From Rhizaria sp. SCN 62-66 (Eukaryota): 52,738 bases of DNA. Shown here in pieces: positions 1 through 52,463 of the stretch (positions are counted from its first letter, which is position 1; each line of letters starts with the position of its first letter). The stretch spans positions 1-52,738 of the forward strand of contig MEDY01000201.1 of the NCBI GenBank assembly GCA_001724265.1. The letters run 5' to 3'. The notes under the pieces are model-generated. The model worked only from the letters and a program-made list of their open reading frames with translations. It ran no database searches and was not told where the DNA came from. The translations under genes and the position numbers were made by a program.

Positions 1-1129
1 GTTATTGCTAGCGCTGGAAGGGTACAGCCAGGAGCGGGCGGTGGCAGTCCAGGAGTTTTGGTACTCAACGACGTCGGGGTGGTTCTTGACGGCTAGCCAT
101 TGTTCCTCAGTGGGGGTATTAACGTTAAACGACACCGCGGCCTGGTGAAACAGCGAACGTGCGCGCGTCGGGGCCGTGCGCAACGTGACTGAGACAAGGC
201 CCGTCACGGAGTCGGTCAATGTAACAATAAGGTCGTCGCGCCCACGGCTCGAGTGTTCGCTTTCATGGTCAGGCACACGGCTGAGAACGCGGCGGTAGAA
301 GCCGTGCTCACTCACAGTGGTCTCGACGCTGGTGCCCGTGCCAACTCCTGTCTCGCTCGTGGTGTCAGCGGTGACCGCAACGATGTCGTCACCGGTACCA
401 GTGCGGATCTTGTGCGCGCGCTCGTACTTGCGGTCGGCCGCGTCGGCCTCGTCCGTGGTAACCGAGATCTCGTCGTTGCACCCAACGGCATCTGCGCTCG
501 GGGCGTGCAGGAACGCGTTCCTGAGAAGACCAAACTCGCGAGCAAACGCAGCGCCGTCGGTACCGGCCGCAAGCCCAGCAAAGGTGACGGTGTCCCGTGT
601 GCACGAGATAAGGGGCACGGTGAGCGGATCGAATCCGTCAAGGCGGATAGCATTGGCGCGCATCAGAGCGCGGTAGGCGTAGTCCGTCGTGAGGCCGGTG
701 TCGACGTCAATGTATGAGACGCTATAGTTGTACTGGCGCGTGCCATCGGGGTGAATAATGGTCGGCTCGGGGTCGTAAGTGATTGGCGACCTCGCCGGGG
801 AGCGCGATGAGGCGGGCTTGACGCCGAGCTACGAGTGAAAACAAAGCAAAGTTGTAGAAACAGTGGATATCGGACATAAGAGGATGCTTTTACTGAAACT
901 ACAATTAATGTAGGTAGAAGTTGTGCTTTTCACGTTGATGTGTGTTTCTTTTTGATGAAAACCCGCAATGTGCATCGTAAACATTAATTATCCAAACAAA
1001 GGAGGCTCATTGAAGTTTACTTACGAAGACGCCGATGAGCACGCCAGCGGTCACCAAAGCTATGCCCAAGAACACCGCAACGCCAATCAAAACCCGACAA
1101 CACGTTGTTTTTGCTCCACACTTTGTCAT
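1..1129 (-). CDS. Unknown type II (N-anchored) membrane protein, 3'-partial; exons 1129-1025 and 828-<1
   Basis: ATG at 1129 gives MTKCGAKTTCCRVLIGVAVFLGIALVTAGVLIGVF, a hydrophobic TM segment. A GTAAGT donor at 1024 and a pyrimidine tract with TAG acceptor ending at 829 give a phase-0 join. Exon 2 (LGVKPASSRSPARSPITYDPEP...WLYPSSASNN) stays open for 276 codons to the window edge. No family recognised. Confidence 0.75.
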
Positions 1130-10800: not shown

Positions 10801-10936
10801 CTGCTGCTGCTGACAGCAAGGCTTCTAGCTCTGGCTCTAGCTCTGCTGGCACTGCGGCTGCGGCGGCAAATAGCGCGGCGGACCGGATGTCGCAGTTGCG
10901 CAAGGCCGACTCCTCCGGCAACCTTAACAACAACAA

Positions 10937-10980
<44 letters not shown>

Positions 10981-15880: not shown

Positions 15881-15919
<39 letters not shown>

Positions 15920-29200: not shown

Positions 29201-32200
29201 CTACGCACCTCCCGCCTCTTTGCTTGCGGTGTTGCTGCGCAGGCCGATGTTACCACGTCTCCGGCCCTGGCTTTCACTTGCTGCAACCCCAGCACTGTCA
29301 GCCCGTGCACGTATGACTGCAACTGCTTTAACAGTGATTGACAAGCTCATGCTGATTTCGCCTTCTGGCGCCCCCAGCAGTGCTGCTGGAAACTCCTGTG
29401 ATGTGCTTGACGAACCGATCAACGGTCACAACGCGATGCGCGCGCTCACGATTCTCTCCACTCTGAGCGCGAGCGGTCATGCCACTGCTGATGACAACCC
29501 CATCGCTGACAGCAAGGGCGACGATTTCCGTGCGGCAGTGCTCCGGGCCGAGATCCTCTGGCGTCTTGGTGCGCACAAGTCTGGCGAGAGCGGTGCTGGG
29601 CCTGGTACAGCTTCGTTCCGCGCCCGTGTTCGGGCAATGGCCCGCACGCTCATTACAACACTGCGCGAGCGTGCTGCCGAGGCGGGGATTTTGACTCGGG
29701 CAGCGGTTGAAAACGCCCGCAGTTGCTTGGCGCGTTATTGGGTTGCGTTAGCGCGCAGCGAGCTTGCTAAGACACTCCTACTACGTGCTGTGGAGACGTC
29801 CGAGGCTGCCGGCGCTGACTCGGGCATGAGCCTAGTGGCGACACTCCGGCAAAAGTGGCTGTCTGCGGACTCAGAGCGGCGTCTTTCCCAGTCGCGGCTT
29901 ATGGCTGCGCTTGCCTCATTGTCTTCTGCGAGCTTGCTTCCTGCGCTTGAAGCAGAAGTGCTGAATATTTCGCCCGCGCCTACGCCCGATATGGATGTGA
30001 ACGAGGACGCAGTGTCAGCAGCCACGCATCTGCGTCACTCGGCAGCGTTTTTGCCTGCCGCTGGCTTGGCGGGCTCTGGCCGCGCTCCTGCACTGGCACA
30101 GCTGGCATTTGCACCCGCTGATAACGACTCATCAGGCTTTCAAGACCCGCTACCGCTGCAGTATGCATTTGAGTCCGCTGCATTTGCAACTCCCCAAGAC
30201 AGCACCTGGCACCATGCTGCGACTCTTACTGCGGCTGGATTTGTTCCTTCCGCTCTATCATACTCTACTGCTACCAACGCTACAACAAGTGTTGCGCCAG
30301 CTGTTACTGCAGCGCGTGGACGCGACGCAACCGGCATGCTCTTTGCTCGTGTGCGCGTTGACGCGGAGGTGATTCTCACTCATGTTCAAGCTGAGCCCCC
30401 GTTACCGGGTGAGGCTGTTCGTTTACCCTTTTCGTTTGCAGGCTTCTCCGATCTCACACCTGATCCGGCGACTGACTCCTCCCGAGTAGGCAGTAGGTTT
30501 GATTCGCAATCAGGGTTAGACATGGGACCGCTTCTTCCTGGCGACTGGCGCAACGCGGCTAGTTGCTGCTTCTTGTTTCGGCCGAACGCGACCATGGCGG
30601 CGCTTGACGCGAGCCGCCGTGCGCTGTGGCAAGCGCGGCGTGCCGTTGAAGACCGCTGGCAGGCGCGGCTGTACGCACTGTGCGCCGCGGTGGCCGACGC
30701 TGACCTTTCAGCCGCCGAGTCGGAACCTACTACTCCGTGCTCTGATCTGGCTGCAGCCGCAACGGCGTCTGCCCGCGCGCACTTCCGCGCGTACCAGCTT
30801 GACTCGTCGCGTTTGCCTGCGCTCACGTCTGCTGGCCGAGCCGCAAGTGTCGCTGCGGCCGCTCTCGCTCGTCCCTTGTACTCGACACGCGCAGGGCTGT
30901 CTGCTGAAGCGGAGACTCCCGCCGCTGTCGCTGCGTGCCGTGCAGCTTTGACGCTGCAAGGAGAGCTGCTGTACGCGGCCCGTGTGGCCGTGGCATGGCG
31001 CACGACTGCGCTGACTGGCGCGCCTTATCCCGTCGGTGCCGCCGTGCCTGCAGGCTCTCAGGAGCCCGGTCGCGAGCTCTTAGCTGCGCTTGGCGGCCCG
31101 CAGCGCGGCGTGCTGGAGCGCTGGCAGCTGGTCCAAGAACTCAAGGGTGTGCTGACCCGGCTGAAGACAGAGCACGGAATGCTGTACGCGCGTGCCGCCG
31201 CTGCAAATGCCGCTAGTACAGCCACTTTTAACAGCGCGGCTGCGCATGCGGCGGCGCTGGCGACACGGCCTGACACGACTGCAGTGCTTGTGGCGAGCCC
31301 TCAACACAGGCGTGTCAACTCTAGCATGTACCTCAACGACATCCTTGCCTCACCGCAGTCAGTGGTGCATCCCGCGACGCCGTCGCGAGCGCCACCGCCT
31401 GCGACTGGCCGGCACAAACGCGTCTTCAGTTTTGGCGCGGACCTGGGTTCCTCTTCAGCTGCTGCTGTTCGTCCGACTGACCTGATGTTGTCACCGACTG
31501 CAGCGGGTGCTGGAAACAGTGGCAACGCGGCTGAGGCGGCGCGGGCGCTTGTACCGCGCATTCAAGCTGCTGAAGCTGAGCTTACACGAGCACGTACAGG
31601 TTTGAAGGCTGCGATGTTAGTGCTATCATCTGCACGTATCGCTGCCGAGCGCGCCCGTAGGGATGCTGCTCCCGTTGAGGCTCTCACAAGCCGTGTGTTG
31701 GCCCGTATCAATAGCGCGAATGCATCTCGCGAGACGGCATCTATTATGTCCTCATTCTCAAATTCTGTTCGTGAGAGCTTGACAACACGCGACCTCCCGT
31801 CACTTGCTGCTATTGCCGCTGCGACGACAGAGTCAACAGGTGCTATCACACACTGCGACCCCGCGGTGGCGTGGTTTAGCAAGCCTCTTGATTCGGGGTC
31901 TTACCACGGTGATTTTATCTGGGACTCTCCCCTGGCACTAACGTATCTGCCGGAGTGCGTCGCGCAGCCACTGCCCGCTCTCACACACGTGCTTTGGCCT
32001 GTACAGTCCTTGCCCGAGACTGCTGTTGCCCCCACACAGGCCCTACAAAGCACTGGCTCTCGCCGTGGATCCTTGTCAGGCGTCGCAGCGACACCCAGTT
32101 CCAATGGATCGGCACCACTGGTCTCCCCTTTCCGCCCTGTGGCCACGCCGAATACACCCGTCAAGACGCCATTGAAGCATGCTCGCACAGGATCTATGAC

Positions 32201-35200
32201 TGGGCTGCTTCTTCCCGGTGCGCTTGCTGAAGATGCCGCTGAAGAGGCTGAATCTGATCCCGACTTAGTGCCTTCAGAGCCACACTTCCCCATTGGCACA
32301 AATGCATTCGCTGCTCTCATACGTACTGCGAGCGGCGTTGGTGGTGTGACATCTTTGGTCGGCCACTCACGCCGCGGCTCCGTTGCAGGCGTGCCTGTTC
32401 TTGGAACATCCGTAACGGCGGTTGCGCCAACTGTCTCGCATGACGGTTTCGACGATGGCGCTGTTCGCGACAGCCTGCGTCGTCCGCCTGCCGCCGCTCG
32501 TTACCGCGCGCGGCTGCGTGAGCTTTCACTGCTCTGCGCGCTGACAGCGGAGCTCGCTGTGCTGACTGCGCACCACACACTCGCCATGGCTGAGATCTCG
32601 CCCGCCGGGACTGCTGTAGGCGCGCCCGAGGTTCCTGGTCTAGCGCCACTTAAGCTGCGCAAGAAAGACGCCGCAGCTGCGGCTGCCGCCGCGGCAGCGC
32701 GCCCCCGCGTGCCTGCCGTGGCGTCGGACGATGCTTTGGCGTCTGCAAGGTTGGCTCTCACTGGCGCCCGCTGGTGGCATAGTCAGAGTGGAGCGCTGCT
32801 TGCGGCAGCCACGCTGCCGGCGCTCGGCTTTGACTGGGGCTCTACCTCTATTGTGGCTTCTTCCACGGCTTCTGCAGCGCCCCCGCTGGCATCTCCCCAC
32901 CATGCTGGTACCGCGCCGACAAATCCGTTCGCGGTCGCTCCGCAGCTTGCTCGCCGCGGTAGCTTACCGTCGTTGCTTCGCGCCTCCTCCACAGGCCCTC
33001 AGTTTGATCCCGCAAGTACCGCACTTTTATCGCCATCGTCTGCTGCCGCTGTTGCGACCGCTGTTCATTCGCACTACATGCAGTCGCAACGTACATTGCG
33101 TGCACCGCTGGCGACAGCCCTTGCGCTGTCTTCAGATCGCGGGTTGGACGTGTTCCCATCTCTTGCCACATTATCTCTTGCGCGTACACTTGCGATGCGT
33201 GGTGCCAAGCTGTTAGGATCTCTTACGTCTAGTGCACTTGCGATGACGTTTGTTTCTGCCGATGACGATGAGAATCCTCCAAATATAAGGGCTTGTGCTA
33301 TTGAGATTGCCCGCGAAATTCTTCCTATGAGTGCAAGCGCGCCCCCGCTGTTTAACATGCCAAGTGACGCTGCTTCTTCTTTGACAACTGCCGTTGTTTT
33401 TGCTGGCCATTCGCTCTCCGCGCTTGTGCTTTGCTCCGCTGTCGCGACTGCGGTTGGCTCTGCAACTGAGACTGTGCCACTCGCCGCACAACTCAACTCA
33501 GCGCTCCGCGATCACCACCCGCGCGTGCGAGTGGCAGGACTGGCCTTACGGGCTGCATTGTGCGAGCGACTTGCAGCCCGCCGGCCCAGCTCCGCCCATG
33601 TTGCACTGCTGACTGATACTGACCTTACGTTTGCAGAAGCTGTCATTTCTGAACAAGCGACGCGTCGCTGCGAGCTCCACGTCATGTTGCCCGCTTCAAT
33701 TGTTGATGTTCTTGCTCAAGCTCCACAGCGGATGTTGGGCTTGGCCTTGCCTAACCCCTCCACAAGACGCCGCCGCAGCCTCGCCACTGTTCCTGCCGTA
33801 GTCGTGCGGACTGAGAACCGCAGTGTGCCCGTACGTGGGCTGAAACTGCAACTCGACTCTTTCTTTCCTTCGCCCACGCGCACTACGACTGTGCAAACTA
33901 TTGAGGCTGTGCCGACACCAACAGCGAGTAATACTAAGTTTACTCCGTCGTATGTGAGCAGCAGCGTGCCTGATGGTGATGACGACGAAGAGCTTAGTGA
34001 CGCTGATGACGATGAGGACGATCCGTGCTATAACCCCGCACTCGCGGCCGACGCTCCGGATACTGCCCTCTCCAGCATTATCACCCTTGCCTCAGCACAG
34101 CTGCACTGCGGCTTCTGCCCGCAGTCTGGGCGTTACCGACCCCGGCGAAGTCGCGGCGCCCGCAGCGCTGCAGCTGCCGAGGCTCAAGCTGTGCGCGTAC
34201 GGTTGCAACGCGTTCTTGCTGCCGCCGACTCTGTCACTGTAGTGCCGGGTGACCCAGCTGCCGCGGATGGTGTGAGCGTGGCACATGCCAGCCACATGCG
34301 CGAATGCCTGCTTGGCGCTGCTCGGCTGCGTGTGCGTGCGATGTGTCCTGTCCTTGCAGCAGGCGAGGAAATGGCCCGCGTCGCTGTCTGGGGCGCGCTT
34401 GCAGGTGGAGCAAGCGACGCAGCTACTGCGGCAGCTGTTGCACGTGTTTGTCATGACGGTGACTTCAGTGCGGCTGCCGCTCTCGCGCACTCGCTTCGTG
34501 ATGCTATCGCTGCAAATTTCAGCGCAAACGGAGGTGACACTGCTGCGAACCCCGCTTTTTCTGCCGCCCGCGCTGTGGCAAATGAAGCTGCCGCTGCTGC
34601 TGCTGCCGCCGCTGCTGCATCTGGGTCACCGCCCGCCGTCGCGGATGCGGTCAGCTCTCTCACACTTGCCGGTCCGGGTGACGGCTTAAGCGCCGTCGAT
34701 CCTGCTCTATTACGCGCGCACACTCGGCTGTTACGGCTGCGTCGCCTTTGCTCTATAATCCCACGTCGTGGTGGGTTCTTGTCCTCGGCACTCGTCACGG
34801 CAGTTACGAGTCAGAGTGCAGATTCTCGCGACCCACTTGCTCTGTGGGTGTTGACTCAGGGGCTGAATAGCTCCAAGGCGGAGTCCAACTCTGTTGTTTG
34901 CCGGCTTCTGTGTGGACGCACTCTTCTCAGTGTTGCGCGCGTCTTGAACCAAGCTGCGACGCTTGCTCGTCGTCCTTCGCAACCAGTTGATTCTTCATCT
35001 TCATCCGGCAAATCGACGCCAATCGAAGATCATGTGGACGATGCTCACCCCGAGACGACTGATGACGCTCCCGCAGCCGATACGGCGGCAGCACCTTCCT
35101 CTGATGCCAGTATTACCGCGGCAGTGTCTGCTGCCCAATGGGCGAGTGCGGTCTCATCCGGTCTGTGCAACGCATACGTGCCGTTGCCAACAACTGCGCG

Positions 35201-37688
35201 CGCCGCCCATGGCTTGCTTTCCCTGCGGGCCGGCGACTCTAAGCTCTCTGTGCGTTCTCGTGGGCACGCACGCAGCCGCTCAGTGGTATCAGCTGCAGGC
35301 GTTGTCAAGCGTGTTACAGCAAATGAGAGTGGTGAAAGTGATGACGACGATAATGGAGCGGAAGACACCGCTGATCCCGAGTGCATGGATGCTAATGAGA
35401 CGAAGAGTATTGGCAGCACGTACACATTCGACCTCACAACGTTGCTGCCACCACTATTTCCGACATCTGCAGCATCATTTGTCGCAACTTCTGCTAGCGC
35501 AACTGCGTCTCAAACCTTCCGTGGTCGCACAGCCTCTGCTGGCTCTGGAATCGGCCGTGCTGCGACAGTCTTAATGCTGGTGCGCGCGGTAGCGCTCGAA
35601 ACGAGGTCGAAATGCGCTGACAAGGGCACTCCCACTGTTCCGTCGGAGACGCTCTTGGATGCAATTATGCTGAATACGGGTAAGCTTGGCGAGAGCGATG
35701 ATAACGAAGAGCATAGTGACCATGACGAAGTGAGCCATTCAGACTCGACTCTTGGCGACCACAGCAGCGACCATGTTCAGCATGATAATAAACGCGCAGC
35801 GTGGATCCTGGACGCAGAGTCCGTGTTGCCTCTGATACCCAATGTGAGTCAAGTGAATGGTTTGCCTGGTGCTCTTATTCCTCTACCTGGGACAATGGCT
35901 CTTCCGACTACAAATGCCAAACCAGCTGTTTCTGCGACAAAAGAGTCTCCAACGGATGTCACACCGCTACAGGTGTGCGCACTTGTGCCTGAGTGTGGTG
36001 AGCTCACAGCCCATCGCACTCTCCAAGGTGCAACTACAAGTGACGTTGCTTCGGTCACAATTCACGCCCCTGTTAATAACGCCTGTTCATTGCCCAATGG
36101 CAAGATCTCCGGCACATTCCACGCTGTTTGCTTTACTCTTGCTCCCCGCAGTGTTTCTGTGATGACTCCTGCAACTAACGATGACGTGCTCTCTATCATC
36201 ACGCAGCTTCTCATTCGTTGCAACAGCGTTGTTTTCCAACAGCCGGAAATCCTCGAGTTATTCACTGTGGCTGCACACTCCGAAGTTTCACCAGTCGCAG
36301 ACGTTGCAACGGATTCCACTGCTGTTGCTGGTGCCCCTGCATGCGCACTATACTTTTCAGACCCTCGCTCCGCTGCTGTCTTTGCACTCGCTGCGTCTCG
36401 CCTCGGTCAGCTCTCCACCTTCGGAAAGCGCTCGAGCAAAAGGAGTGCGGTTGCCACGCTCTTGGGCAATTACTCACTTGCCGTCGCATTGCATTCTGGC
36501 TCGGCGACGGTTGGCTTTGCAACCGTGAGCCCTGCTGACACGAAACAACAGGCCGTTAGCGACTCGACGGTTGCTTCTGCCGCCGCTGCTTCTCCAAGTC
36601 GTCCCGCCGCCGCGGGACCACGTGCGGCGCGCCTGGCTGCTACTGCCGGCCTCGACGCGGCGATTCCGAGTGATAACGCGCATCATCAGTCTGTGTCGAT
36701 GCTTCCTGCGATTGCAGCACTGCCGCTGTTTTGCAGTGCTGGTTTGTCAGATACAGGCAAGTCCGTTGTCACCGATGCATCTCTCGCACCCAAAATCACA
36801 AGCACATTTATTTCATTGCTCCCAATTTCTTCACCCAACAACAGTGTATCACACTGCACCCGTTTTGAGCTCAGGTATGTTTCAAAGACCGTGTCTGGCC
36901 CGCTCACATCTGACGTGCGGTCAATTTTCTCCGAGTTCACTCTCTTGCCAAGCTTGTCTCACAGCCTGGCGCCGGACGCAGACTCCGAGAGCGAGTCGTC
37001 GGTGAGCAGCGCAGCGCAGCCTGCGTGCTCTCGTGTGATGTTCACGTTGCCGTTCCTGCTGCGCCTTTCCTCATCCCCGGCACAGCAACTCAACATCACG
37101 ACTGCAGCCGATCTTGTTGCCGACCTGTTGGAGGCGGGTGAGCTTCTTGCCGCCCACCTCCGCCCCGCGTTCCTGGCTGCCCGCGCTTTCCCTGTCCCGC
37201 AGACGCTCTACGCCTTGGCGCGGCCGCACCGCGTGCTCTCTGCTCCGGGCCTTGCGCGCGCGCTGCGGGCGATCCGCGCCGGTCTAGTGCTTCCGGCCAC
37301 TGCACTTAGCGCTGCGAAGACCGGTGGCAACAACAACATTACCGCGCAGGCGGCGGGCGCGTCGCCCACAGCGCTTGTGGTGGCTCCGCCCACAGTCGCT
37401 GCAACAGTCGCGCTCGCCGCTTCGCTTGTGTTCCCGCCAGCAGCTGCTTCAAACGACGCTCCTGTGCAGCGCGGGCGTGCGCGGGCTATGCGTGCGCTGG
37501 TGCGTGCGGCCGAGAGCGCGTTGGAAGAGCGCGGCGTTCTTGCGTGGGGCGTGCGAAACGCAAATGTGGCCGGAACAGTTGAGGCGGACTGTGAGTTGCT
37601 GCTCTCAGAGGAAGCTGCGAAGACAAACAAGGCTGTGTCCAGTGCGTGGGAAGATCCACAGGATGCGGAGCTTGATGCATTTATCTAA
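20244..37688 (+). CDS. Giant Ala-rich multidomain protein, about 5814 aa if the in-frame TAG at 21390 is read as sense: N-terminal LRR-like region, helical-repeat-like region, two SLOG-like plus degenerate class III cyclase-like units
   Basis: ORFs 20229-21392 and 21402-37688 share one frame and are separated only by TAG plus 9 GC-rich nt. LRR-like LATLRLTRLAL..VAALDLTGSP lies at about 20600-21010. SLOG-like LDIIFAEQSLACGVAVHSILP (26325-26424) and VVFAGH..DLTFAEAV..ELHVMLP (33384-33693). Cyclase-like YIFLSVAHAVRHAL..IALSLGAV..FTGSPVTEAA (27222-27760) and LYFSDPRSAAVFAL..VALHSG (36339-36515). TAA stop. Domain names are by eye. Confidence 0.65.
21390..21392 (+). other. In-frame TAG, putative sense codon
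   Basis: GTG AGC GCA TAG TCC GCC GCA TTG; the frame stays open for over 5400 further codons. Confidence 0.7.
25287..25331 (+). repeat. 9-nt coding repeat encoding SPMSPMSPMSPLSPI
   Basis: tcc ccc atg agc ccc atg agt ccc atg agt ccc tta agt ccc att. Confidence 0.8.
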
Positions 37689-38186: not shown

Positions 38187-39525
38187 ATGTTGAGCTCATT
38201 CCGTGCAGGTTCTGCCCTCCGCACTGCAGTGCGTGCTACTACGCATGCTTCTACCTCTGCATATGTCATCTCCTCGCCCCTGCGCGGCATGGAAGCAAGT
38301 GCGGTCTTTGGAGCTGGCAACTTTATGCAACCCTCTGTCAACAAAGCGTATGTCGCTGCAGCTTCACCATCATTTCTAGATGAATCATAACCGTATTTTT
38401 CATTATCAAACACATCTCATGTGCACATATTCGTTTGTTGATCCGCTATATCTCCCCGATCACAGAAGCATTGCCCGCGTGTTCGCACACGTCAACACCG
38501 AGGAGAACCGAGCCCAGTGGGACTACGATGCCTTCGTGCCGGACATGGGCAGCCAGGACGCGTACGAGATCGTCTCCAAGCTGGGCCGCGGCAAGTACTC
38601 TGAGGTTTTTGCAGGCATCCATCTGCCGACAGACGACCCCGTGGTGATCAAGATCCTCAAGCCGGTCAAGACTCGCAAGATCAACCGCGAGACTCTCATT
38701 CTCTCGCGCCTCGCACAGGGCCCCAACATCGCGCGCTTGCGCGAGACGGTGCAGGATCCTGTGTCCAAGACGACTTCGCTCGTGCTCGACTACACAGACG
38801 GCGCCGACTTCAAGACGCTCTACCCGACGCTCAAAGACGCCGATGTGCGGTTCTACCTCTACCAGCTGCTGCGCGCGCTCGCACACGCACACTCGCACGG
38901 CATCATGCACCGCGATGTCAAGCCGCACAACGTGATGATCGACCCCAAGCGCCGCACGCTCACGCTTATCGACTGGGGCCTGGCCGAGTTTTACCACGCC
39001 GGCTACGAGTACAACGTGCGCGTCGCGTCGCGCTACTTCAAGGGACCCGAACTGCTGGTCAACATGAAGGACTACGACTACTCGCTCGACCTCTGGTCCT
39101 TCGGCTGCGTCATGGCTGAGATGGTGTTCCTTGTGCACCCGCTGTTTCAAGGCAAGGATAACGACGACCAGCTCGTCAAGATCACAAAGGTCCTCGGCAC
39201 GCCCGCGCTGCGCCGTTATTTGGAGCGCTACCGCGTTTCGCTTGAGCCGCGTCTCGAGGCGCTGATCGGTGAGTACGCGCCGCGCCCGTGGACGCGCTTT
39301 GTCACCGACGCGAACCGCCACCTCGCGCACGCCGACGCGCTCGACCTGCTGTCGAAGGTGCTTGTGATGGACCACCAGCAACGGCTGTCGGCCGCCGAGG
39401 CGCTCGCGCACCCGTACTTCGACGCCGTGCGCGCGGCTGAAGCGGAGCGCCAGGGCAAGGCCGCCGCGGAAGCGGTCTCGCGGGAGATGGCGGCGGCGAA
39501 CAACGCGACCGCGAAGATAGTCTGA
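38187..39525 (+). CDS. CK2A (CSNK2A-like): Casein kinase II alpha catalytic subunit with N-terminal presequence-like extension; exons 38187-38347 and 38466-39525, about 406 aa
   Basis: SIARVFAHVN..WDY, LGRGKYSEVF, VIKILKPVK, HGIMHRDVKPHNVMID, LIDWGLAEFYH..YNVRVASRYFKGPELL, YDYSLDLWSFGC. A GTATGT..CAG intron at 38348-38465 joins in frame (GC|A). TGA stop. Confidence 0.93.
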
Positions 39526-39855: not shown

Positions 39856-42800
39856 TCAATTGCCAACATCGTTGTTGGCGTCACCCTCCCAATATCCAGT
39901 GTCACCATCTTCACCTTCTCCGTAACCATCGGCCTCTTCACCCTCGTAGTAGTAATAATAATCCCCTTCACCCCAATCGCCTTCACCGTCGCTGTCCACA
40001 TCACCCGTCGAGTCAACGTGCGTCTCATCAACATGATCACCGTAATTCACCCGAGCCTCAGCTGTGGATCCACTCCCATGGTTGGGCGCGGCTGATTCTT
40101 GCTTCACGGCTGTACGACGGGCAGCGCCGGTCCGCGCAGCGACAACAGATTCGACTGACATCCCGTCTTCTACTCCGTCGCCTTCAGCAGCAGCTGCTGA
40201 AGCGCTGCCTGCTGCGCTACTGTGCGGATGTTGCTGATGCTCGTGCTTGACTGTGGCTGATCCATGTGCAGCCGCATTGCGCGTGCTAGCAGAGTTGGCA
40301 ATAGAAGAACCGACACCAAGGTTATTATCCTCGTTCGTCTTTACGTCGGTGTCTGCTTTGCTATCATCGTGCATTGCAAAAACGTTGTTATTATGTAGCT
40401 CATGGCTCGGTTCGTGCGTGCCGTCTAGCTCTTCTTCTTCACTCTCATCTTCGTGGTACTGTTCACGTTCAGCGATAGAGCCAAGCAAGAGCTTTCGAAG
40501 CTGCGTAATAAGCACACTCTCGACAGCCTCAGCAGAGACTGCGGAAGCTGTGTGACCCGTGCCGGGCTCTGCCTTTACGTGCGGCAGTGTGGCGCCATCA
40601 GTCGAGCTGCTCAACGCACTCGCAGGGGTGGCGCCGGCTAGAGCCGCCGCAATCCTACGCTTAAACGCGCCTGACGCACTATGCCGCACAATGTCTCCGA
40701 TTGACGCTGCGATTGCAGGCGCCACCGTCTAGTGCTGATACACACTGCGCCGCTCGCGCCGCGACAACACACCCGGCAGACGCGCCTTTGCTGCGACAAT
40801 AGCGCGCGCCGCGCAGACGGTGACAGCGCGCGCTCGTGCACGCGTCAGCGCTACTGAGACCTTGTGTAAAGACTTGTACGGTATGGGTGGTGCACGAGCT
40901 CGGTTGGCCGCTGCCGCACCAATTGCAGACGGCTCGCCTTCGGCTGCACCAGTGTCAAAGTTGATTAGCATGCATATTCGGGTCACACGCGGCGCCGCCA
41001 CTGCATCCGCAAGCACGTCCCTTCGCCCACCTTCGCTCGCGCCGCCACCAGCATCTACAGCAGCGCCCGATGAGATATCACTGCTAGCGTCGGTGGGACG
41101 AAGCCATTGCGTTTGGCAATATGCCCACGCACTAGCCTCCGGTGGCGGCGGCAGCGTGAATATCTCCATATCGGCGTCAGCCTTATCGACGTCTCTGCGC
41201 TGGAAGTGTGGCCAGCTAGTGTCTGTGCGCAACCGGTCTGCAGCTGCGGTAGGTGCGCGCGCAGTTGTGGCAGGTACCGCCTCAAGTCCCAGTAGCGCAA
41301 CTGCAGACTTCAGCATAGCTTGATCAATTACGGACACTGCCTTTGCTAAGTCACAGTCTCCTGCAGTGGCTTGGGGCAGAAGTGAAGATGAGGCAACGGA
41401 GCGGTAACAGTGAAAGGGAATTAGACTATGTAAATATGCGGGGCTAGCATCTGATTCTTCGGTGTTCCCAGTGGGAGAATCTTCTCCATCGCTCGTGCTG
41501 CTCTTTTCGCACGTTGCGCGCGATGATGATAAACCAGCACCATAGTCGTTCATAGTATCTGTTTCAACCAATAACACGCAGTGAAAACAATCGCCGCGCG
41601 CCAGCGACTGAGCCAGCGATGCGCGTGTTTGTAATCGCTTGTACTGGGTTGCGTGGAATAAACGTTCTCCAGCGGTGGGCGGCGGTAGGAACGTCGTAAT
41701 TGCAGCGTGTACGCGAGTTTCTTCTTCTTGCACAGTCATGGTATTGGTTGCATCAGTTACAGTTGGCTGCTGCTCTACTGTTGTGTTTGCGGGGGCGGCT
41801 CTAACAACGTGGGAACGATCAGCTCCATGCACATGGCTAGAGCCTGCTGTGCTCTCCGACTTTACGAATGTGTCAATAGGCGGCTTAGATGCGGAAATGC
41901 TCTGATCACGATTTGTTGTTGGGAGCAGATCGTTGCGGTGTGATAGCCATGGGACCAGCGGCATGATGCTGCGTAACGTAGTCTCTAATGCGCTTGAAGT
42001 AGCACCAGCGTCCAAGTTAGATGTGCCGACCTGATCAGTAGCTAACTCATCAGCAGGCGCAGTCGCTGAAGGCTCAGATACATTCTCCACATTGCTTGCG
42101 GCTACATCATGCGTTTCCGTTTTGACGGGGGTGCTCAATGTTTCGGCATTAGTTGCGTTTCTTATTGCGGCACCGTTGCCTGTATTTGCCTAATGATCGG
42201 AACGGGCGTCTGCAAGTGAATCGTTGTCAGTGCTGACATCCCCGTGCGACTGCTGTTGCGTGGGTTGATGTTGCTGGTGAAGCATGCGTGAGCGCTTTCC
42301 AACCGGGAGAATTGTTGGAAAAGATGGCACGTGTGCACTTGTGTTTGCGACCTGTAGCACGCTTGGCCGCTGACGGCGCACACGCACACGGACACGCGTG
42401 CGCTTGGTCTGGGCAACAGCAATATTAGTCGATTGATTGAATTGATCCGGCAGGTAACTCGAGTTTTTATCCGCTGCTTGTGCTGCAGTGATGCGAGCTG
42501 GAATGCGCAGTGATGCCAAGTTACGTACGCTTGCGTGGCTTACAGTTGTCGCAACAATGCACATTCCAGCCGCAGGACCTGCGCCATTGAATTCACTTTG
42601 CCCATCATTGAGAACAGATAACCCAAACTGTGGCAGGCGTGCGCGATGGCGGGAGTACACTGCCCAAAGCGCGAGACAGCCGTGCACTAAACGGGGCAGT
42701 GCTGCCTGCGCAGTGCCACCAGCTGCCAACGCTGCGCCCGGTAGCCATGGCAACGGAGCAAGTGATGCCGGTGAGCCTGTTGTTAAACCGCCTTCGCAAG

Positions 42801-45617
42801 GAGAGTCCGCGCTTGCAAAAGCGAGGATACGCGATGCTGCTGCAGAGTTGATTACTGGCAGCGCAACAACGGTAACTGGGCGGTCCCGCTAAACGTTTTC
42901 AAGGGGGGGTGGCAAATCATCCTCATTACCAGTGTTAACGTTTGCAGAAGCATCGCCTAACTCCTCATCACGCGTAGGGCGTGTTTCGTCAGCTGATGAA
43001 ATATGTTCTGAATCTGCTGCTGAGAACGTCTTGTAAAAAGCTGGAAGGATGTGCATAACGTTGACCCCGCAGAGCTTGCGCACAAGTAAGCGTGCTGTGT
43101 CAGTAATGCCGGCGTGTTTCTCAGGCAACCGATGCGGTTGTTCGATATAGTCAACATGCCGACGGCCTGACGTCCATATTTTTGACTCAGTTGGCTCTCG
43201 TTGAAGCGCAGTGACCGCAGCAACCGTGCCTACCCAGCTGCTTAAATAACTCCGCATACCATTGTATACTGCAGGCAATGGTGCCGTGTAGAGACGCAAC
43301 GCATCATGATAGTTAACACAAAAGTTAGCCGGACCTGGTTCATCGTACCAGCACTCCCGGCCACCGCTGTCCGGTTTATCATTAGCTTCGCTGTTCGTTG
43401 TTTTGTCTTGAAGTGTCGCATTTGCTATTTGCTCAATCACGCTTGGCGATGACAGAACAAAGATGGGCCGACGTGTCTCGCCTGTCCGATTCTGAGCGTC
43501 AACTGAAAACACAGCAGCTCCACTCGACGCTTTAAGCAAGGTCTCGAGTTGCAGCGGCGGCGCCAGCAGATCAACGCCAGGCTGGATAGACTTCAACAGT
43601 GACATGAGCACAGGTGCGACTGGGGCACGCGCATTGGATACCTGCGACGGAACAGCTGTGAGAGCTGCTGCAAAGGCCGATGTGGCAGCCGAGTCAAGCG
43701 CTGCAGCATGCGGTGGTCGCCATAGGCTGTAGGGCTCCTCCGGGACCAGAAGTGCAATCTCATCCATCTGCCAGGTGGCAGCTGCATTGGGTACGTGTGT
43801 TGACGCATTAGGAACTTCTACAGCTGCTGTTGAAAGAGCGCCCGGGCGCGTCGCTGCAAGTCGGAGCAGGCCTGCTGCAGTGGCTTCAGGGCACAGTGCA
43901 AGCCGCAGATGGGGACCATTTGGCGTTGCGGTACAGACGGCGTCAACACGCGCGCACGTAAGAGATGGCAACGGCAGTGCACGTTGCGCGGCAACAGCCC
44001 CAGCGTGGGCTGCCACGTCTTGCGTCTGAACAGCGGGCTGTGGCCAAACAAAAGCGCCCGACGGTGAGGCCGGAAAGGCCCACTTACAGACAAGCCGGAC
44101 ACGCACACTTTGAGTGTCTGCGACGGAAGGAACAAGTCCCAGCAAAGGCTGCGATGCCACATATGCTAGGATTGCGCGTGCACATGCGCCCTCAGCTGCA
44201 GGGTCAGCCGGCGCCACGAGTGCAAGCGTCACGCGCGTACCCTGGGACTGGGCTCGTCGCTGCCCCGCTCCACATGCTACGGATACCGCTGCGTGATCTC
44301 GTGTGTTTGCCAGCACATGAACTGGCTTAGCACGGGCGCGCACAACGCGCACTGCAGTGTCACCCGAGATTGCACCCACAGTCACTTCGTGCATCTCGCC
44401 CATTTTAGATGCGGTACCGCCCAAACTAGATGCTGCGTTTGATGCGCTTGCGTTTAGACTCACAGACGCATTGGCCCTGGAACTTGTGCTTGTGTTCATG
44501 GACGCACTCAAAGTTGAAGCTGATAACGGAGGATCAGAACGTTCAGAACCGCTATCGGTGACTGTCAGCACAGTGACTGTACCTGGACCCCATGGTCGTA
44601 ACTTTGAAGCATACAGCACAACGCCCTTAAAACCGACGCCAAATGTGCCGACGGTGCCACCAGTTTCCGCAGGACCTTCTCCACTTGCACTGGCAGACGA
44701 TGTGTCCACATCAGAGCGATCACCAATACCGGCGAGCGTCGTCGGCGCTGCTGCAGCATTAGAACCATCATCGTCGCCACCCTTAGAAGATGCAAAAAGC
44801 GACGTCATCAGCCGGGCGCGCGCAGGATCCGTGGCTAGCCCCGCAATGCCTGAGCCCGAGTCCTGCGCAGTAACGGTGTAGCGCACCAGGAAACGTCCCG
44901 GGGCTCCGGCCCCGCGGCCAGACTGCAGGTCAGCTACTGAGGCAAGCGGTGTCGCTGTGCTCCCCCCCGTGGCTAATGCAGAGTTGGGGGCAGACAATAG
45001 CGCGTCGGCGGTGTCAGCGGCTGCTGCAGCCGCGGCGGATGCTGCTGCTGAAGTTGCAGCGGCAGTGCCGCCACCCGCGACAGCAAACGTTGCTGGTGCG
45101 GTAACAAGGGGCTGCCAGTTACGGTGCGTGCGCGAGATGTACTCGCGCTGTGGAGGACGCACTGGGGCAGATGCATTGTCAGCAAAGCATGAGCCTGGAG
45201 GGGGCGGCCACTCATAAGCACTCGCTGAGCTTGTGGCGCACGCCGACCGCAGCCAGGCAAGCTCTGATCCTGATTCAAGCGCCGCAGCGTAAAATGACTG
45301 CGCGGGTGCCGCAGCCCAGGTGTCAATGATGTGGCTGGCGTGGATGGTCATTGTGATGTTATGTTGTGTGGTGGCAGAGAGGGGGGAGCTGAGTTGACGA
45401 TCGCGGATTGCATCAAGAGCATTGTCAAATAGCTCCTTGACCGTCTGGAATACCGCCGACTCAGGTGAAAACCCGAGGAGTGCAAGATCTACAAGGGAAA
45501 TACATATGCACGCTGTGAATTAAGATATATTGTTCGATATAATGTGGGACTGGAGTTAGACAGGTGAACAGACGTACTTTTGCCAAAGAAACGAGCAGCA
45601 CTCGGCTCGGAAGACAT
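39856..45617 (-). CDS. TOP6B-like: DNA topoisomerase VI subunit B-like protein (GHKL plus transducer); exons 45617-45578 and 45488-39856, about 1890 aa with three in-frame TAG codons
   Basis: The spliced N-terminus MSSEPSAARFFGK|NLALLGFSPESAVFQTVKELFDNALDA matches the Top6B start and Bergerat motif I. QDSGSGI (about 44845-44865), GTFGVGFKGVVLY (44611-44649), GTRV (44230-44241), transducer IPYKSLHK (40861-40884) and VAPAIAASIGDIVRHS follow. Four listed ORFs share one frame, joined by TAG at 42889, 42190 and 40729. Final stop is TGA. Confidence 0.85.
40729..40731 (-). other. In-frame TAG within the conserved transducer end of TopoVIB-like
   Basis: RRSVYQH*TVAPAIAASIGDIV. Confidence 0.8.
42190..42192 (-). 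other. In-frame TAG in TopoVIB-like
   Basis: DARSDH*ANTGNGAAIRNATNAETLSTPVK. Confidence 0.75.
42889..42891 (-). other. In-frame TAG in TopoVIB-like
   Basis: PPPLENV*RDRPVTVVALPVINS. Confidence 0.75.
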
Positions 45618-46049
45618 TAAGACCTCAGGAGAGAACCCCTGAAGAATATATGCTAGGTTAGTCAAATTGAAACTTGAATTAATTAATACCAACTCAATGT
45701 GTCAACCGAAAACGGAGTATTGTTTCATAATAGAAAGCAGGTCTTCAAGTCACATCCGAAAATGCGTATGTGGTGGGCCGGTAGGTGACCGTGGGCAGCC
45801 ATCGGGCGATGCAACAGTCTTCCCGCGCTTCGCTCAGCTTTCTCTGCCGCTTTTGCTTGGCATGGACTGTCCGTGTTTGCGTCTCTAAGTCTCTATTCAA
45901 GTGTTCATTTCTAACGATCTAACATCTATTTTGACCGTTTTCTTCCACTAAATAGGCTTCTTTCAAACTCGATCTTCTTTAAGACTGCCCTCGTGAACAG
46001 CTCGAACACCCACCGCTAACGCTAAAACTTCCCCGACTAGAGCTACAAG
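45618..46049. promoter_or_regulatory. Putative bidirectional promoter/5'UTRs between TOP6B-like and RAD21/REC8
   Basis: Only 432 nt separate the two divergent start codons. Confidence 0.55.
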
Positions 46050-48806
46050 AGTACGTTAATTCGAGATATATTAGATATACATACCATTATCGTACTGTTT
46101 CATATATTATATGTCTGCCATTTTCCCATCACGTTCATGTGTTGTCTTGGTCAACCTCCGTCTCACTTTCGCGCCCTTTGCTTGCTTGCTTTTCCCGCCT
46201 TCAGTGTTCTTCGGCCAAGTTCTCTTTAACAAGGGCGCTGACAGCCTCGGCCTTGCTCCCAGTACGTATCAGCTCTTTCTTTGCTCCTTCGGAGCTGTAT
46301 TTGCCCGCTCAAGCTTCATTCGTATTACAATCGCTCACCATTTTCGTTTCCCGCCTTTTTTTCCTTACGCTCCCTCCTAACCTTTCAACTCTCTTCCTCC
46401 CGCGCACCCCTAGTCTGGCTTGCGGCTCACTGGCCGAACAAGCTCAAGAAGGAGATGGTTCTTCGCATCGTGATCGAGTCGTACGTGGACCGCATCATGA
46501 ACCCTCAGACGCCGCTGGCACTGCGCCTGCGCTCGCACCTGCTGTGCGGTGTCGTGCGCATCTACCAGCGCAAGATGGCATATCTCACCGAGGACGCCCA
46601 CCGCGCCCGTAAGGACGGCTTTCTCGCGCGCATCAAGCAGCACCTCGCTGCCGCTTCGCTCGCCGCCGACGGATCCGTCGACGCCACTCACAACGGGTCG
46701 ATCGTCGACGCCAGCAGTGCCGGTGGCGCCAACGCGAGCCGCGCCGCCGTCGACGTTGACGCCGCTCTTGACCCTCTGCTGTCGCACGCGATGGCCGCGC
46801 AGGACCTCTCGTTTGGGCTCGACGACGATGCGCTGATGTCGCACCTTGACGCGTCGATGAACTTGGTCGAGGCGCGTCTCAACGCGCAGGCGGCACAAGC
46901 ACTAAACACGCCCGGCGGCGCTGCTGCCGCTGCCGCCGCCGCCGCCGCCGCCGCTGCGGGCGGCGCGTTCGCCGGTCTGGGCGGTGGTTACGAAGGCGCG
47001 GACGCGTTTTCGCTCGAGAACCTTGGGTTCGACATGGTTGAAGGCTTTGACGGCTTTGACGGCGCGCAGTTCGCCGGCGCCGACGGCCAGTTCGGCGGCG
47101 CACACAACATGAGTACAACGTCCTTTGCGGGCGTTGAGGCGGCCCGTGCAGGCACCGCGCCTGGTTCCCCCGCGGGCCCCGAGCTCGGCCTGGGCATGGG
47201 CAACATCAGCTTCGGCGCATCGCCCTCGCCCGCGCGCGCCGCCGGGGTCAACACCAGCGGTCTGCACCCTACGCGTCTCTCGTTCGGCGCTGCTGAGGTT
47301 GCCCGCGACGAGCGCCGCCGTCTCTCCACCGCGTTCGCCGCGGGCGGCCCGCTCGGTCTGGGTGACTTGTCGGCCCTGTTTGACAGCGAGAAGGCTCTCG
47401 CGCTCTCCGACCTCGCGACTGCGGGTGAGGCGTTCGGTTTGCCCGCCTTCGACGCCCGCGCACCGGATGCCGGCGCGTTCACCGCGGAGGATATGGCGTC
47501 GCTGCTCACGCTCAAGCAGGGCGCAGACGCCGTGCCCTCGCCCTCGCGCACGCGCCGTAATGCCGCGTCCCCCCCGGGCTCGCCTGAACGCGCCTCCCCC
47601 CGCCGACCCTCGGCCGCTGCCGACCTTGCTGCCGGCGCCGACGCCGCCGCCGCGCCCGGCAGCGCGCCCGGTTCGCCCGCGGCCGTAAACGCGCTCAAGC
47701 GCCGCCGCGAGCTCCCTACCGACTCCGCCGTCGAGCTGTCTTCGGCCGTCATGAACGGCTGGTTCCGCTCTGCTGACGAGCTGATGCACGTCAAGCGTCC
47801 CTGCATCGCGTCTGCGTATGAGTACGCGCGCGTGGGCGCAGACGGCCGCGCGTCCGAGTCAACCGTTAGCACGGCGACCGCGGCGGCGCTGGCGCTGCGC
47901 GTGCAGTGCGCGCCCGCCGCCGTGCTCCGCGAGGGCGCTCTTGAGGGCACGCGTCTGCCGTTCCCTGCCTCCGGGGGCGGGCTCGCGAGCGCTGCGGCCG
48001 GCGCGCTGATGAACTACGCGCCCTCCGCCGACGTCGCTGCCCTTGTGCGAGCGGCTGATGAAGAGCTGTACCTCTCTGACGCTGCCGCGCTCAACGCCAG
48101 CGGCGCTCATGGCAGCGGCGGCCACGGAAGTCTGTCGGCGTCGTTCGCGTCGTCGGGTCTGCCCAGTGACGAGTCGCTGCTCTCGGTTGATGGGCTCGTC
48201 CACGAGGCGTCGCGCGCGCTTGACAACACCGGGCTGGACGCGGCGGGCGTCGAGGACGGCTACAACGCCGACTACAACGGTCTCGACGAGCTTGACGTCT
48301 CGCTGCTGCCCGCCGGCGTCTCTGTCGCGGAAAACAGCGCTGCTAAGTACAGTCTCCACGCGTTTGGCACCAGCGGCGGCGCAGACGCGGTCGCGCAGCC
48401 GGAGTCCTCGGGCGCTGCTGCTGCCGCCGCCGCCGCCGCGGAAACAGTGGTATCGACGATGCGTCCACCTAAGTGGCTCGCTGGCGTCCGCAAGCCCGCG
48501 TCGTTCGCCGGTCTGATCGAGCGCGAGGTGGCCGCTGCCGACGCAGTTGCGCGCCGCAGCGAGTCCCGCCGCAGCAGCCGCGGCATGGGCGGCGACGACG
48601 ATGACGATGACGAGGAAGACGAGGATGAGGAGAGCGGAAAGCAGGTCGCCGTCGCCAAGAAGGAGGCTGCCGAGGCCAAGGCGGCGCAGGCGCGCGCACG
48701 CACGGCAGCGGTGGCGTTCTGCACGATGCTGCACCTCGCTGCGGCGCAGAAAGTTACCGTCAGTCAGAGCGAGGCCTTCGGTGACATCAAGGTCAACCTG
48801 GTCTAA
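46050..48806 (+). CDS. RAD21/REC8: Cohesin alpha-kleisin (RAD21/REC8 family); exons 46050, 46205-46261 and 46414-48806, about 816 aa
   Basis: Spliced MFFGQVLFNKGADSLGLAPIWLAAHW..ALRLRSHLLCGVVRIYQRKMAYL is the kleisin N domain, and TAAVAFCTMLHLAAAQKVTVSQSEAFGDI is the C-terminal winged helix. Introns GTACGT..CAG (46051-46204) and GTACGT..TAG (46262-46413). TAA stop. Confidence 0.92.
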
Positions 48807-50347: not shown

Positions 50348-50863
50348 ATGAGCAGCTCTCGCAACACGCACCCCGGCCTGGCGGAGCTTCGCGCCAAGGT
50401 GGACGCCACGCTGCAGGCGCCTGATGTGCGTTCTGACGACGCGCAGCTGTGTCGTTTCCTCCGCGCGCGCGAGGGTGACGTTGCTGCTGCGTTTGCTATG
50501 TGGTCCAAGTGGGTCTCCTGGCGGGCCGCCGAGGGGCTCGACGGACTTGTGTACGACGACATTTGCGACGAATACGAGTGGGGCCGCGCGTTCTGGCACG
50601 GCCGAGACAAGGCCGGTCGTCTGTGCGTTGTCGCGCAGCCGCGGTTCCACTATCCCGCCTATTCGCGCTCGCAGAGTTTCGTGCGTTTCGGCATTTACAT
50701 CATGGAACAGGCCACGCGCATGTTTGCCGGCGGGCCAAAGGAGTTGCTCTCTGCAGAGCACCGCGACGACGACGCCGGCGTTGGCTCCAGTGCCCGCAGC
50801 GGTGTTGATAGTAACAGCAACGCCATGAACAGTGCGAGCTCCCTCAACTCCAACAGCAACAGC

Positions 50864-50933
<70 letters not shown>

Positions 50934-52463
50934 GTAGCGAAGCCAACAAGCACGCCGCCCCCGCCTACTCAGAGGCACTTGCACAGACTGCTATCGAGGG
51001 CGCGGCATCCAAGGACGCCGTCACGTCACCTCTAGAAGTTGTCGCGGAGGCAAACGCTGAGACTGACGACAACAGCAGCGTTGAACTGCAGGACCCCACT
51101 TCGCCAGCCGTGGTAGACTCAACATCCGACTTGTTCTCACCGCTGCCGCCGCCTGCGTACGCTGACGAGTTCCCCGAGTCCACGGCGTCCCCCAGCTCTG
51201 GGTCCGAGGCTGAGGACGGCGAGCCCGCGGTGAAGCAGATTTGCCTGATTTACGACCGTCTAGGCATGGTGACGAGCAACATGGACACGTCGCTAATGTC
51301 CACGATGCGCGACCTCACCGTCCTTATGCAAGACTGCTACGCAGAGTTCCTCGGCAAGGTATACTTTCTCAACGCATCCACGGCATTCTGGGTCATTTAT
51401 AAGATCATCTCGCCGTTTCTGTCGCAGAAGACCAAGGATAAGTTCATCTTTTGCCGCTCTGTGGCTGAATTGCGCAACCACTTCGATGTTGCTCAGCTGC
51501 TTCCTGTGCATGGGGGCGCGTCTTGCTACACCTTCCCGCACCGCCGCGTACGTTCACTGTGAAAATGATTCCTGTGTAGATTATCATCCTCTTCCTTTCT
51601 TTTTCACTTCTTGCCTGCGGCATGTGTTGCTCTTCAGTGTTTTGCTAATCTATAATATCTGTTGTTGTGTTTCTTTGCATCTGCGCACGCAGCCGCCGAC
51701 CGAGGCGAAGAGCTCATTCCCGCTCCTGGGGCCCGGCGCGGGGCAGCTGATCAACTGCGACATGTTCATGACGCCGGAGACTGCGGACGCCATCGATTTC
51801 CCCGTGCTCACGGCCTCCGCAGGCAACGCCGCCACTGCAGTGCTACCGGTCCCCATCCCTGTTGGCGATAACAGCCCCGATGGAGACGACGTTGACGACG
51901 CCAACGACACCTCCTCTGCGCCCGGTGCGAGCGCAAAGAAGGGCCGGTGCGTCGCGTTGTATCTGCGCGGCGCCAGCTCCGGCGCGGGCGTGTGCTCCGG
52001 TCTGACGGCGACGTGGCACCCTCTGCCGCTCTGCCCGCTGCAGGGCGGCGCCGCGCCCTCGCCCTTCACCGGCACAGTCGCCGGCGTCGCGGCGCTGCCG
52101 GTGCCGGATACCTTCGCGGCTGTGGCCGCTGCCGCGGCCGCCGCGACGGGCGCGCCCGCGGCGGGGTCGGGCTCCGCGGTGTACGCGGCGTCGCCCTGGG
52201 AGCGCCGCTGGGCGGGCGCGGAGGGCGCGGGCGACGCGGCGTACCACCGCGCGCTCCGGGGCGTCGAGGCCACCGAGACGCTCTCGGCAACTGAGCCCAC
52301 GGTCGTATATGACAGCGCGAACCGCACGAAGGAGGACTGCGAGCGCGTGGTTTTCCGCGTCCCGGGCCCGGGGACGCTGGCGATCTGCATCGATAACGCC
52401 GGCTCGTGGATTCGCGGCAAAACCGCGCGTTACTACGTTCGCGTGGCGCCCGCCGACGTGTGA
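50348..52463 (+). CDS. Sec14/CRAL-TRIO lipid-binding protein with C-terminal GOLD-like domain; exons 50348-51547 and 51693-52463, about 656 aa
   Basis: DDAQLCRFLRAREGDV..W..WR, GRDKAGR, QDCYAEFLGKVYFLNA..YKIISPFLSQKTKDKF, LLPVHGG. A phase-0 GTACGT..CAG intron lies at 51548-51692. The GOLD-type end reads GTLAICIDNAGSWIRGKTARY. TGA stop. Confidence 0.9.
50864..50932 (+). repeat. (AAC)23 perfect coding microsatellite (poly-Asn)
   Basis: Read directly inside the CRAL-TRIO domain insertion. Confidence 0.95.

Follow-up and report, generated by a model that had tools for sequence, protein, structure and literature searches.

Can a reading frame that is broken three times by TAG still encode a single protein? 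The question is raised by a locus on contig MEDY01000201.1, of which a stretch of 52,738 nucleotides (52.7 kb, hereafter the window) was analysed. The gene in question lies on the minus strand and is about 5.5 kb long, running in a single frame from an ATG to a terminal TGA (Table 1), and the predicted protein of about 1831 residues is rich in low-complexity sequence. A preliminary description of this locus had placed in-frame TAGs at 42890, 42191 and 40730 in a gene that it called TopoVIB-like, had argued that all three must be decoded for a functional protein, and had named the gene the strongest test locus for recoding. The three positions are correct, and the TAGs, numbered here TAG1 to TAG3 in the order of translation, are the only in-frame stops: there is no TAA or TGA inside the 1831-codon frame.

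The best single explanation is that this organism translates UAG or reads through it, and we give this a probability of about 0.5. It is favoured by the continuity of the frame and of its coding signal, by the lack of intron or spacer features at the TAGs, by the presence of a fourth in-frame TAG in the window, and by the absence of TAG among the terminators. The focal locus would then be one gene, in which the ribosome passes three UAGs instead of ending the protein. We infer the decoding at the ribosome itself, as well as the tRNA used and the amino acid inserted.

One line of evidence is the coding signal on either side of the TAGs. A table of codon scores was trained on the other genes of the window, and the four segments into which the TAGs divide the focal gene were scored in six frames. 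The frame-0 scores of segments 1 to 4 are 0.13, 0.10, 0.10 and 0.23, and the other five frames are all negative. Similarly, frame 0 is the top one of the three sense-strand frames in 60 out of 60 sliding windows of 60 codons, scored against local background. Mononucleotide shuffles are rarely free of in-frame TAA and TGA (0, 22, 0 and 2 of 5000 shuffles for segments 1 to 4, respectively). The pieces of the open reading frame (ORF) lie 3213 and 1413 nt apart, and both distances are divisible by 3, giving a common frame. Within the gene, every 150-nt window has a GC content of 0.47-0.68, and values of 0.38-0.44 are reached only in the spacers outside the ATG and the TGA; a GC scan found no AT-rich spacer, resembling an untranslated or intergenic region, after any of the three TAGs. 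After TAG1 and TAG3, there are about 100 or more codons before the first in-frame ATG. The lack of spacers, the shared frame and the long ATG-free stretches effectively rule out separate genes, and the continuity of the frame through the TAGs is real and not a product of chance. No internal repeat spans any of the TAGs, the only matches being of low complexity. It is worth adding that a GT/GC-rich repeat, CGTGTCCGTGTGCGTGTGCGCCGT (42387-42400), encodes TRVRVRVRRQRP (focal residues 985-996) within a 339-nt stretch 5' of TAG2 that is considered further below.

The use of stop codons in the rest of the window points in the same direction, although the tally covers only the 10 gene ends in the 52.7 kb and is a small sample. 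Seven of the genes end in TGA, three in TAA and none in TAG. Over the 14888 codons of the 10 genes, four in-frame TAGs are found, and no in-frame TAA or TGA. The fourth TAG is in a 5814-codon gene, which consists of two ORFs that merge once TAG is read as X, and which continues intact for 5431 codons beyond its TAG. At the ATG of this gene (20244), the GC content goes up from 0.41 to 0.69; it then stays at 0.59-0.78, with values of 0.68-0.75 around the TAG, and the GC scan shows no AT-rich spacer there. Frame 0 is the top frame on both sides of this TAG, and the flank is not intron-like. The encoded protein is alanine-rich and has no Pfam domain. A gene for a protein disulfide isomerase (PDI) ends in KDEL-TAA, which implies that TAA is a genuine stop, and this in turn excludes TAR reassignments of the ulvophycean and ciliate types. 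UAG appears to be no longer a routine terminator in this GC-rich eukaryote.

A number of observations weigh against this reading. In-frame TAG is found 4 times where 130.2 would be expected from position-specific base frequencies, a depletion of about 30-fold. It is absent from eight of the 10 genes, including a 3665-codon gene (7839-18836, plus strand) for which 30.9 would be expected. TAG typically makes up about 20% of stop codons, and at that share the absence of TAG from all 10 gene ends has a probability of about 0.1. The TAGs are also clustered: if they were spread evenly over codons, the probability that at least three of the four fall in the focal gene would be about 0.007, although this becomes about 0.08 after allowing for the roughly threefold enrichment of this gene in rare A/T-ending codons. 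The focal gene has the lowest GC content at third codon positions (GC3) in the window, at 0.50, and a decaying gene with this low GC3 and three of the four TAGs would look alike. No tRNA gene was found in the 52.7 kb, which does not include an eRF1 gene either. Homologues were sought with the full-length protein (with X), with residues 1-1200 (exhaustively) and with residues 1201-1831, and among 5.8 billion clustered and 1.84 billion representative proteins only the ORFs of the locus itself were found. Finally, four UAGs in 10 genes and 14888 codons is far sparser than the densities described for known UAG-reassigned lineages, for which 384 UAGs in 71 genes and 204 in 126 genes are given (PMC5304391).

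The 30-fold depletion implies that TAG is a rare or leaky codon here and not an ordinary sense codon, and it argues against a full and long-standing reassignment. UAG may therefore be best regarded as a rare sense codon, probably either captured only recently or ambiguous in meaning, which is tolerated chiefly in long genes whose codon bias is weak. A structured read-through signal is not supported: for each of the four TAGs, the surrounding 61 nt fold no better than shuffles do (z from -0.96 to +0.86), the four stretches have no hairpin in common, and the base that follows the TAG is different in each case (C, G, A and T). An Rfam scan of the window matched no family. In the 3665-codon gene, a DEP domain and weak WD40 signals were noted; its GC3 is 0.83.

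Table 1 Features of the focal gene, the further in-frame TAG and the modelled introns. Shuffle counts are the numbers of shuffles that score at least as well.
Feature	Position	Strand	Details
Focal gene	45351..39856	minus	single frame, 1831 codons; ATG 45349-45351, terminal TGA 39856-39858
TAG1	42889-42891	minus	codon 821; context AAC GTT TAG CGG GAC
TAG2	42190-42192	minus	codon 1054; context GAT CAT TAG GCA AAT
TAG3	40729-40731	minus	codon 1541; context CAG CAC TAG ACG GTG
G1 box (DxGxG)	44845..44880	minus	YTVTAQDSGSGI; residues 158-169; 19.0 bits, 0/1000 shuffles; hhalign P=0.002
G2 box (GxxGxG ... LY)	44608..44652	minus	VGTFGVGFKGVVLYA; residues 234-248; 17.1 bits, 0/1000 shuffles; hhalign P=0.024
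GT motif	44215..44244	minus	QGTRVTLALV; residues 370-379; 15.3 bits, 3/1000 shuffles
Candidate switch-lysine motif	40849..40890	minus	PPIPYKSLHKVSVA; residues 1488-1501; marginal, 11.9 bits, 11/1000 shuffles, one of 12 motifs; hhalign P=0.34
Fourth in-frame TAG	21390-21392	plus	codon 383 of the 5814-codon gene 20244..37688, which ends in TAA
Intron, small membrane-protein gene	1024..829	minus	196 nt, GTAAGT...TAG, GC 0.36
Intron, Rad21-like gene	46262..46413	plus	152 nt, GTACGT...CTAG, GC 0.49
Intron, CK2 alpha gene	38348..38465	plus	118 nt, GTATGT...CACAG, GC 0.40

The identity of the protein bears on the question because it had been argued that decoding is required: the GHKL domain and the transducer form one polypeptide, and here they would lie on different sides of the TAGs. 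A Top6B profile was built from prokaryotic Top6B genes fetched by motif pattern, of which 58 were aligned (most are 510-850 residues long). Twelve motifs were each scored against 1000 shuffles, and our first matches to Top6B, made by eye, were excluded as tests. The G1, G2 and GT motifs are all found, and they lie 5' of all three TAGs, as had been described. The GT motif occupies the position in the Top6B profile that corresponds to the end of the GHKL sheet. Taken together and in order, the boxes of the Bergerat fold that were chosen a priori score 39.4 bits, compared to -1.2 ± 5.0 bits in shuffles (0/1000), and the other nine proteins of the window, some of which are longer, reach at most 14.3. 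The G1 stretch is also the sole hmmsearch match of the Top6B hidden Markov model, at -3.7 bits; the G1 box is common to all GHKL ATPases and so is not specific for TopoVIB. From these motifs, an N-terminal domain of GHKL type (Bergerat fold) is well supported.

The evidence beyond this domain is thinner. The sequence IPYKSLHK was reported to follow two of the TAGs, and is indeed at residues 1490-1497, between TAG2 and TAG3, within the candidate switch-lysine motif. The chain of transducer motifs is not significant (99/1000 shuffles equal it). VAPAIAASIGDIVRHS was said to begin directly after TAG3; the position is near, but it begins one residue later, preceded by Thr, and the Top6B profile block 'YI' for this stretch gives no signal, being equalled by 210/1000 shuffles and having its best placement elsewhere. 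TAG3 had also been said to split a conserved motif, a claim that gains no support from the Top6B profile or from the homologue searches. The N box (ExxxNSLDA) scores at best -1.0 bits (754/1000 shuffles equal) and -14.3 bits in the ordered chain; two blocks from the H2TH region are equalled by 851/1000 and 790/1000 shuffles, and the transducer WKxY, at best 5.3 bits, by 721/1000. The RFANR block and the helices that follow the lysine were not found with the Top6B profile, and a free chain of 21 automatic Top6B blocks is equalled by 127/1000 shuffles and does not use the expected positions.

Database searches are similarly sparse. There is no match to Pfam at E up to 10, using whole pieces and fragments of 51-126 residues. 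No Top6B model in NCBIfam matched, the only match there being a sacsin N-terminal ATP-binding-like domain at residues 228-250, which is below threshold (E 0.025-0.088). A phmmer search of the PDB with whole pieces gave nothing for the 820-residue piece and one unrelated chain (E 1.1) for the C-terminal piece, and searches with fragments gave only spurious antibody matches. The single-sequence AlphaFold2 model of the 820-residue piece has a confidence score (pLDDT) of 34, which is too poor for a fold search. In a protein atlas, the feature neighbours of the N-terminal piece are HATPase_c_3 or SACS (scores 0.86-0.88), which are weak GHKL leads; a comparison of atlas structures places Top6B clusters first, with template modelling (TM) scores of only 0.22-0.28, and the third segment gives nothing. 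No match to TopoVIA/SPO11 was found when the larger ORFs of the 52.7-kb window were scanned against Pfam.

The TopoVIB-like label is thus partly borne out: G1, G2 and GT are significant, whereas the N box, H2TH and WKxY are absent and no profile or PDB entry matches. On sequence grounds, a TopoVIB-like identity is possible, because TOPOVIBL is known to have lost exactly the boxes that are missing here. TOPOVIBL is described as extremely divergent, with loss of the N box (in many cases), the N-strap and the H2TH domain (PMC9665070); the H2TH domain is present only in TopoVIB, a linker taking its place in TOPOVIBL. The argument that decoding is required by the domain structure is not established, given the non-significant transducer chain, a marginal IPYKSLHK (11/1000) and a GHKL subfamily that is ambiguous in view of the sacsin-type match. 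That all three TAGs are decoded is still the best reading, from the frame and its context (the fourth TAG, and no TAG among 10 terminators), and recoding can fairly be tested at this locus.

The main rival to translation of UAG, and the next after it, is that the gene is a pseudogene or truncated allele. On this view, the protein was cut short at residue 820 or beyond by a nonsense change such as CAG to TAG, after which the decaying frame gained two more TAGs. We consider this unlikely, while recognising that several features suit it. The GC3 is the lowest in the window and the codon scores are weak (0.10-0.23); TAG is otherwise strongly avoided in frame; with no detectable homologue, little is known of the constraint on the protein; and all of the GHKL motifs lie 5' of TAG1, so that the 820-residue product might suffice. 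Against this, the frame continues for 1010 codons past TAG1 with no frameshift, TAA or TGA and with frame 0 at the top throughout, and the downstream segments are as coding as the upstream one (0.10, 0.10 and 0.23 compared to 0.13). Random substitutions in the focal codons make stops in 2.6-3.7% of cases, and TAG accounts for 39-43% of these, the share being lifted to 0.43 by a C-to-T bias. The probability that all three stops are TAG is therefore 0.06-0.08 under random nonsense mutation. Three stops imply about 100 substitutions; with a ratio of indels to substitutions of around 0.1, several frameshifts would be expected, and none is found. Decay of the focal gene also leaves the missing TAG terminators unexplained, as well as the TAG in the intact 5814-codon gene, which would need a separate accident. 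If the pseudogene reading is correct, the finding is an ordinary one.

It is improbable that splicing removes one or more of the TAGs. The organism does have spliceosomal introns. Three were modelled, all near the 5' ends of their genes, with lengths of 118-196 nt, GC of 0.36-0.49 and the form GTA[ACT]GT...YAG, and their removal restores sensible proteins. Two of the three end in TAG, as a focal TAG would if it were an acceptor. TAG2 is the only one with a conceivable in-phase intron, of 339 nt and GC 0.54, starting from GTACGT at 42528; a second phase-0 site, GTAAGC at 42543, would give 354 nt, and both lengths are multiples of 3. In the 339-nt stretch, the frame-0 score is at its lowest (-0.06) and stops are few whichever frame is read, yet frame 0 is still the top frame there. 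Set beside the modelled introns, this stretch has a greater length, a higher GC content and a weaker pyrimidine tract (0.60, compared to 0.73 and 0.83 in the 30 nt 5' of the acceptors of the membrane-protein and Rad21-like introns, respectively). More generally, the 30 nt 5' of the focal TAGs have a pyrimidine content of 0.43-0.60 (0.60 for TAG1), with a flank GC of 0.47-0.68. Neither TAG1 nor TAG3 has an in-phase GTA[ACT]GT site upstream, the closest GT sites being in phase 1; the position of the modelled introns at the gene 5' ends also counts against splicing here. Mini-introns of 6, 12, 14 or 15 nt ending at the TAGs were rejected as too short and inconsistent. Two further TAGs were considered as coding TAGs and rejected: 829-831 is the 3' end of the 196-nt intron, and 38376-38378, upstream of CK2, sits within the 118-nt intron.

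Stage-specific adenosine-to-inosine (A-to-I) editing, which would convert UAG to UIG and be read as Trp, was put forward in the preliminary description by analogy with filamentous ascomycetes. We regard it as very improbable. Only TAG is affected, and the base that would be edited is in each case preceded by U and followed by G; fungal editing is described as preferring U at -1 together with hairpin loops, and as correcting premature stops in genes of the sexual stage (PMC11156358, PMC10776026). The divergent neighbour of the focal gene, encoding a kleisin of Rad21/Rec8 type, would also be in keeping with it. Nevertheless, the TAG flanks fold no better than shuffles, so that there is no hairpin at any TAG, Trp suits the TAG contexts poorly, and the best named relatives of the CK2 protein in the window are from plants and green algae (about 57-62% identity) and not from ascomycetes. 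To our knowledge, a restorative A-to-I editing system is found only in fungi. The analogy therefore gains no support here.

Equally improbable is a reading in which translation truly ends at TAG1, giving a protein of 820 residues, and the downstream ORFs are separate genes or chance frames. In its favour, public ORF sets carry proteins of 820, 187 and 453 residues, and the longest of these has an acidic, disordered-looking tail at its C-terminus. Against it, genuine spacers between genes in this window measure about 330 nt or more and have a GC content close to 0.4, and no TAG is followed by one. In addition, the segments are all in a common frame, the ATG-free stretches after TAG1 and TAG3 are long, and the stored ORFs begin at TTG or other non-ATG codons, as would come from automatic calling of a bacterial style.

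The other genes of the window give some indication of the host. They alternate between strands and have few introns. The nearest relative of the CK2 alpha protein has 75% identity, and the named ones have 47-62%, being mostly from land plants and green algae, plus a chytrid-like fungus. From these similarities the host is possibly of the green lineage. A trypanosomatid, an ulvophycean with the TAR=Gln code and a fungus were each considered and ruled out, by the strand alternation, the KDEL-TAA end and the CK2 relatives. The CK2 alpha gene (38187-39525, plus strand) has an upstream exon (ATG 38187) encoding about 54 residues rich in Ala, Arg and Ser, followed by the 118-nt intron. To judge from its composition, this exon looks like an organelle transit peptide, and plant chloroplast CK2 alpha-4 proteins are among the CK2 matches.

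The focal gene and the gene for the Rad21/Rec8-type kleisin are divergent, around an AT-rich spacer of 1.1 kb (45352-46455). This pairing is suggestive, if both are meiotic. The 46150-46455 part of the kleisin gene (plus strand) encodes a conserved N-terminus, ...FFGQVLFNKGADSLGLAP/IWLAAHW, split by the 152-nt intron, with the junction reading ...LGLAP/IWLAAHW, where the stroke marks the intron. No initiator Met stands at the expected place, where the sequence is CAG/TG TTC TTC; another splice further upstream may complete the ATG, or the start may be GTG. At the beginning of the window, the small membrane-protein gene (minus strand, ATG 1129-1127) has a 35-codon hydrophobic exon, then its intron, and then runs off the window. 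Near the other end, an ORF at 51486..52463 (plus strand) overlaps the 3' end of a SEC14-like gene (50348..51562) by 77 nt (51486-51562), and its true start is probably further downstream, or it is spliced. Across the window, coding GC is 0.55-0.78, compared to 0.36-0.49 in spacers and introns, which makes a practical guide to gene boundaries.

Combining these lines gives a picture that we hold only tentatively. The DNA would come from an undescribed eukaryote, GC-rich and with few introns, that may belong to the green lineage. UAG, alone among the stops, would no longer act as a terminator there, and its capture as a sense codon would be early or ambiguous; it would still be avoided about 30-fold, but tolerated in long genes of weak expression. 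Among these genes would be one for a highly divergent GHKL protein, maybe a meiotic TopoVIB-like subunit, standing head to head with a gene for a Rad21/Rec8 kleisin. Nuclear code changes that affect only UAG are known from very few lineages, and stages at which use of the codon is still infrequent could reveal the way in which a stop comes to be captured. If the picture is correct, this would be a natural intermediate that fits both the codon-capture and the ambiguous-intermediate models, in a GC-rich genome rather than in the usual AT-rich one. There is also a practical consequence, in that automatic ORF calling stores the focal gene as proteins of 820, 187 and 453 residues, and such genomes would be mis-annotated.

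It remains to compare the locus with known systems. The protein resembles Top6B and TOPOVIBL/MTOPVIB in that G1, G2 and GT are in the right order with plausible spacing, and there is a marginal downstream match to the switch-lysine motif of TopoVIB, [IV]P[YF]xSxxK. It differs from Top6B in being about three times longer, with the putative switch lysine some 1100 residues past the GHKL motifs, and in having a G2 box that fits a sacsin-type domain about as well. A possible kinship with GHKL proteins of the Sacsin/MORC/Hsp90 type (HATPase_c_3) is suggested by the sub-threshold NCBIfam match, by the atlas neighbours and by the very long proteins of this group; on the other side, the matches are all below threshold and the atlas structures rank Top6B clusters first.

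Likeness to the UAG-edited genes of ascomycetes lies in the interruption by UAG only, in an otherwise intact and possibly meiotic locus (PMC11156358, PMC10776026), whereas the lack of a hairpin signal and an apparently non-fungal host set it apart from editing in filamentous ascomycetes. As for reassignment, the window is GC-rich, unlike the UAG-only reassigned lineages, and offers no conserved alignment position from which the residue could be read; within the parts of the literature covered, we found no report of a green alga, or of another GC-rich alga, with a nuclear code in which only UAG is changed. The closest parallels are the rhizarian exLh (UAG=Leu), Iotanema spirale (UAG=Gln) and some ciliates, where UAG is the only in-frame stop and UAA and UGA terminate (PMC5304391). 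In the precedent described there, UAA and UGA remain stops and UAG is rarest in highly expressed genes (PMC5304391). The window agrees with these lineages in showing no UAG terminators and in having UAG more commonly in genes of weak codon bias (PMC5304391).

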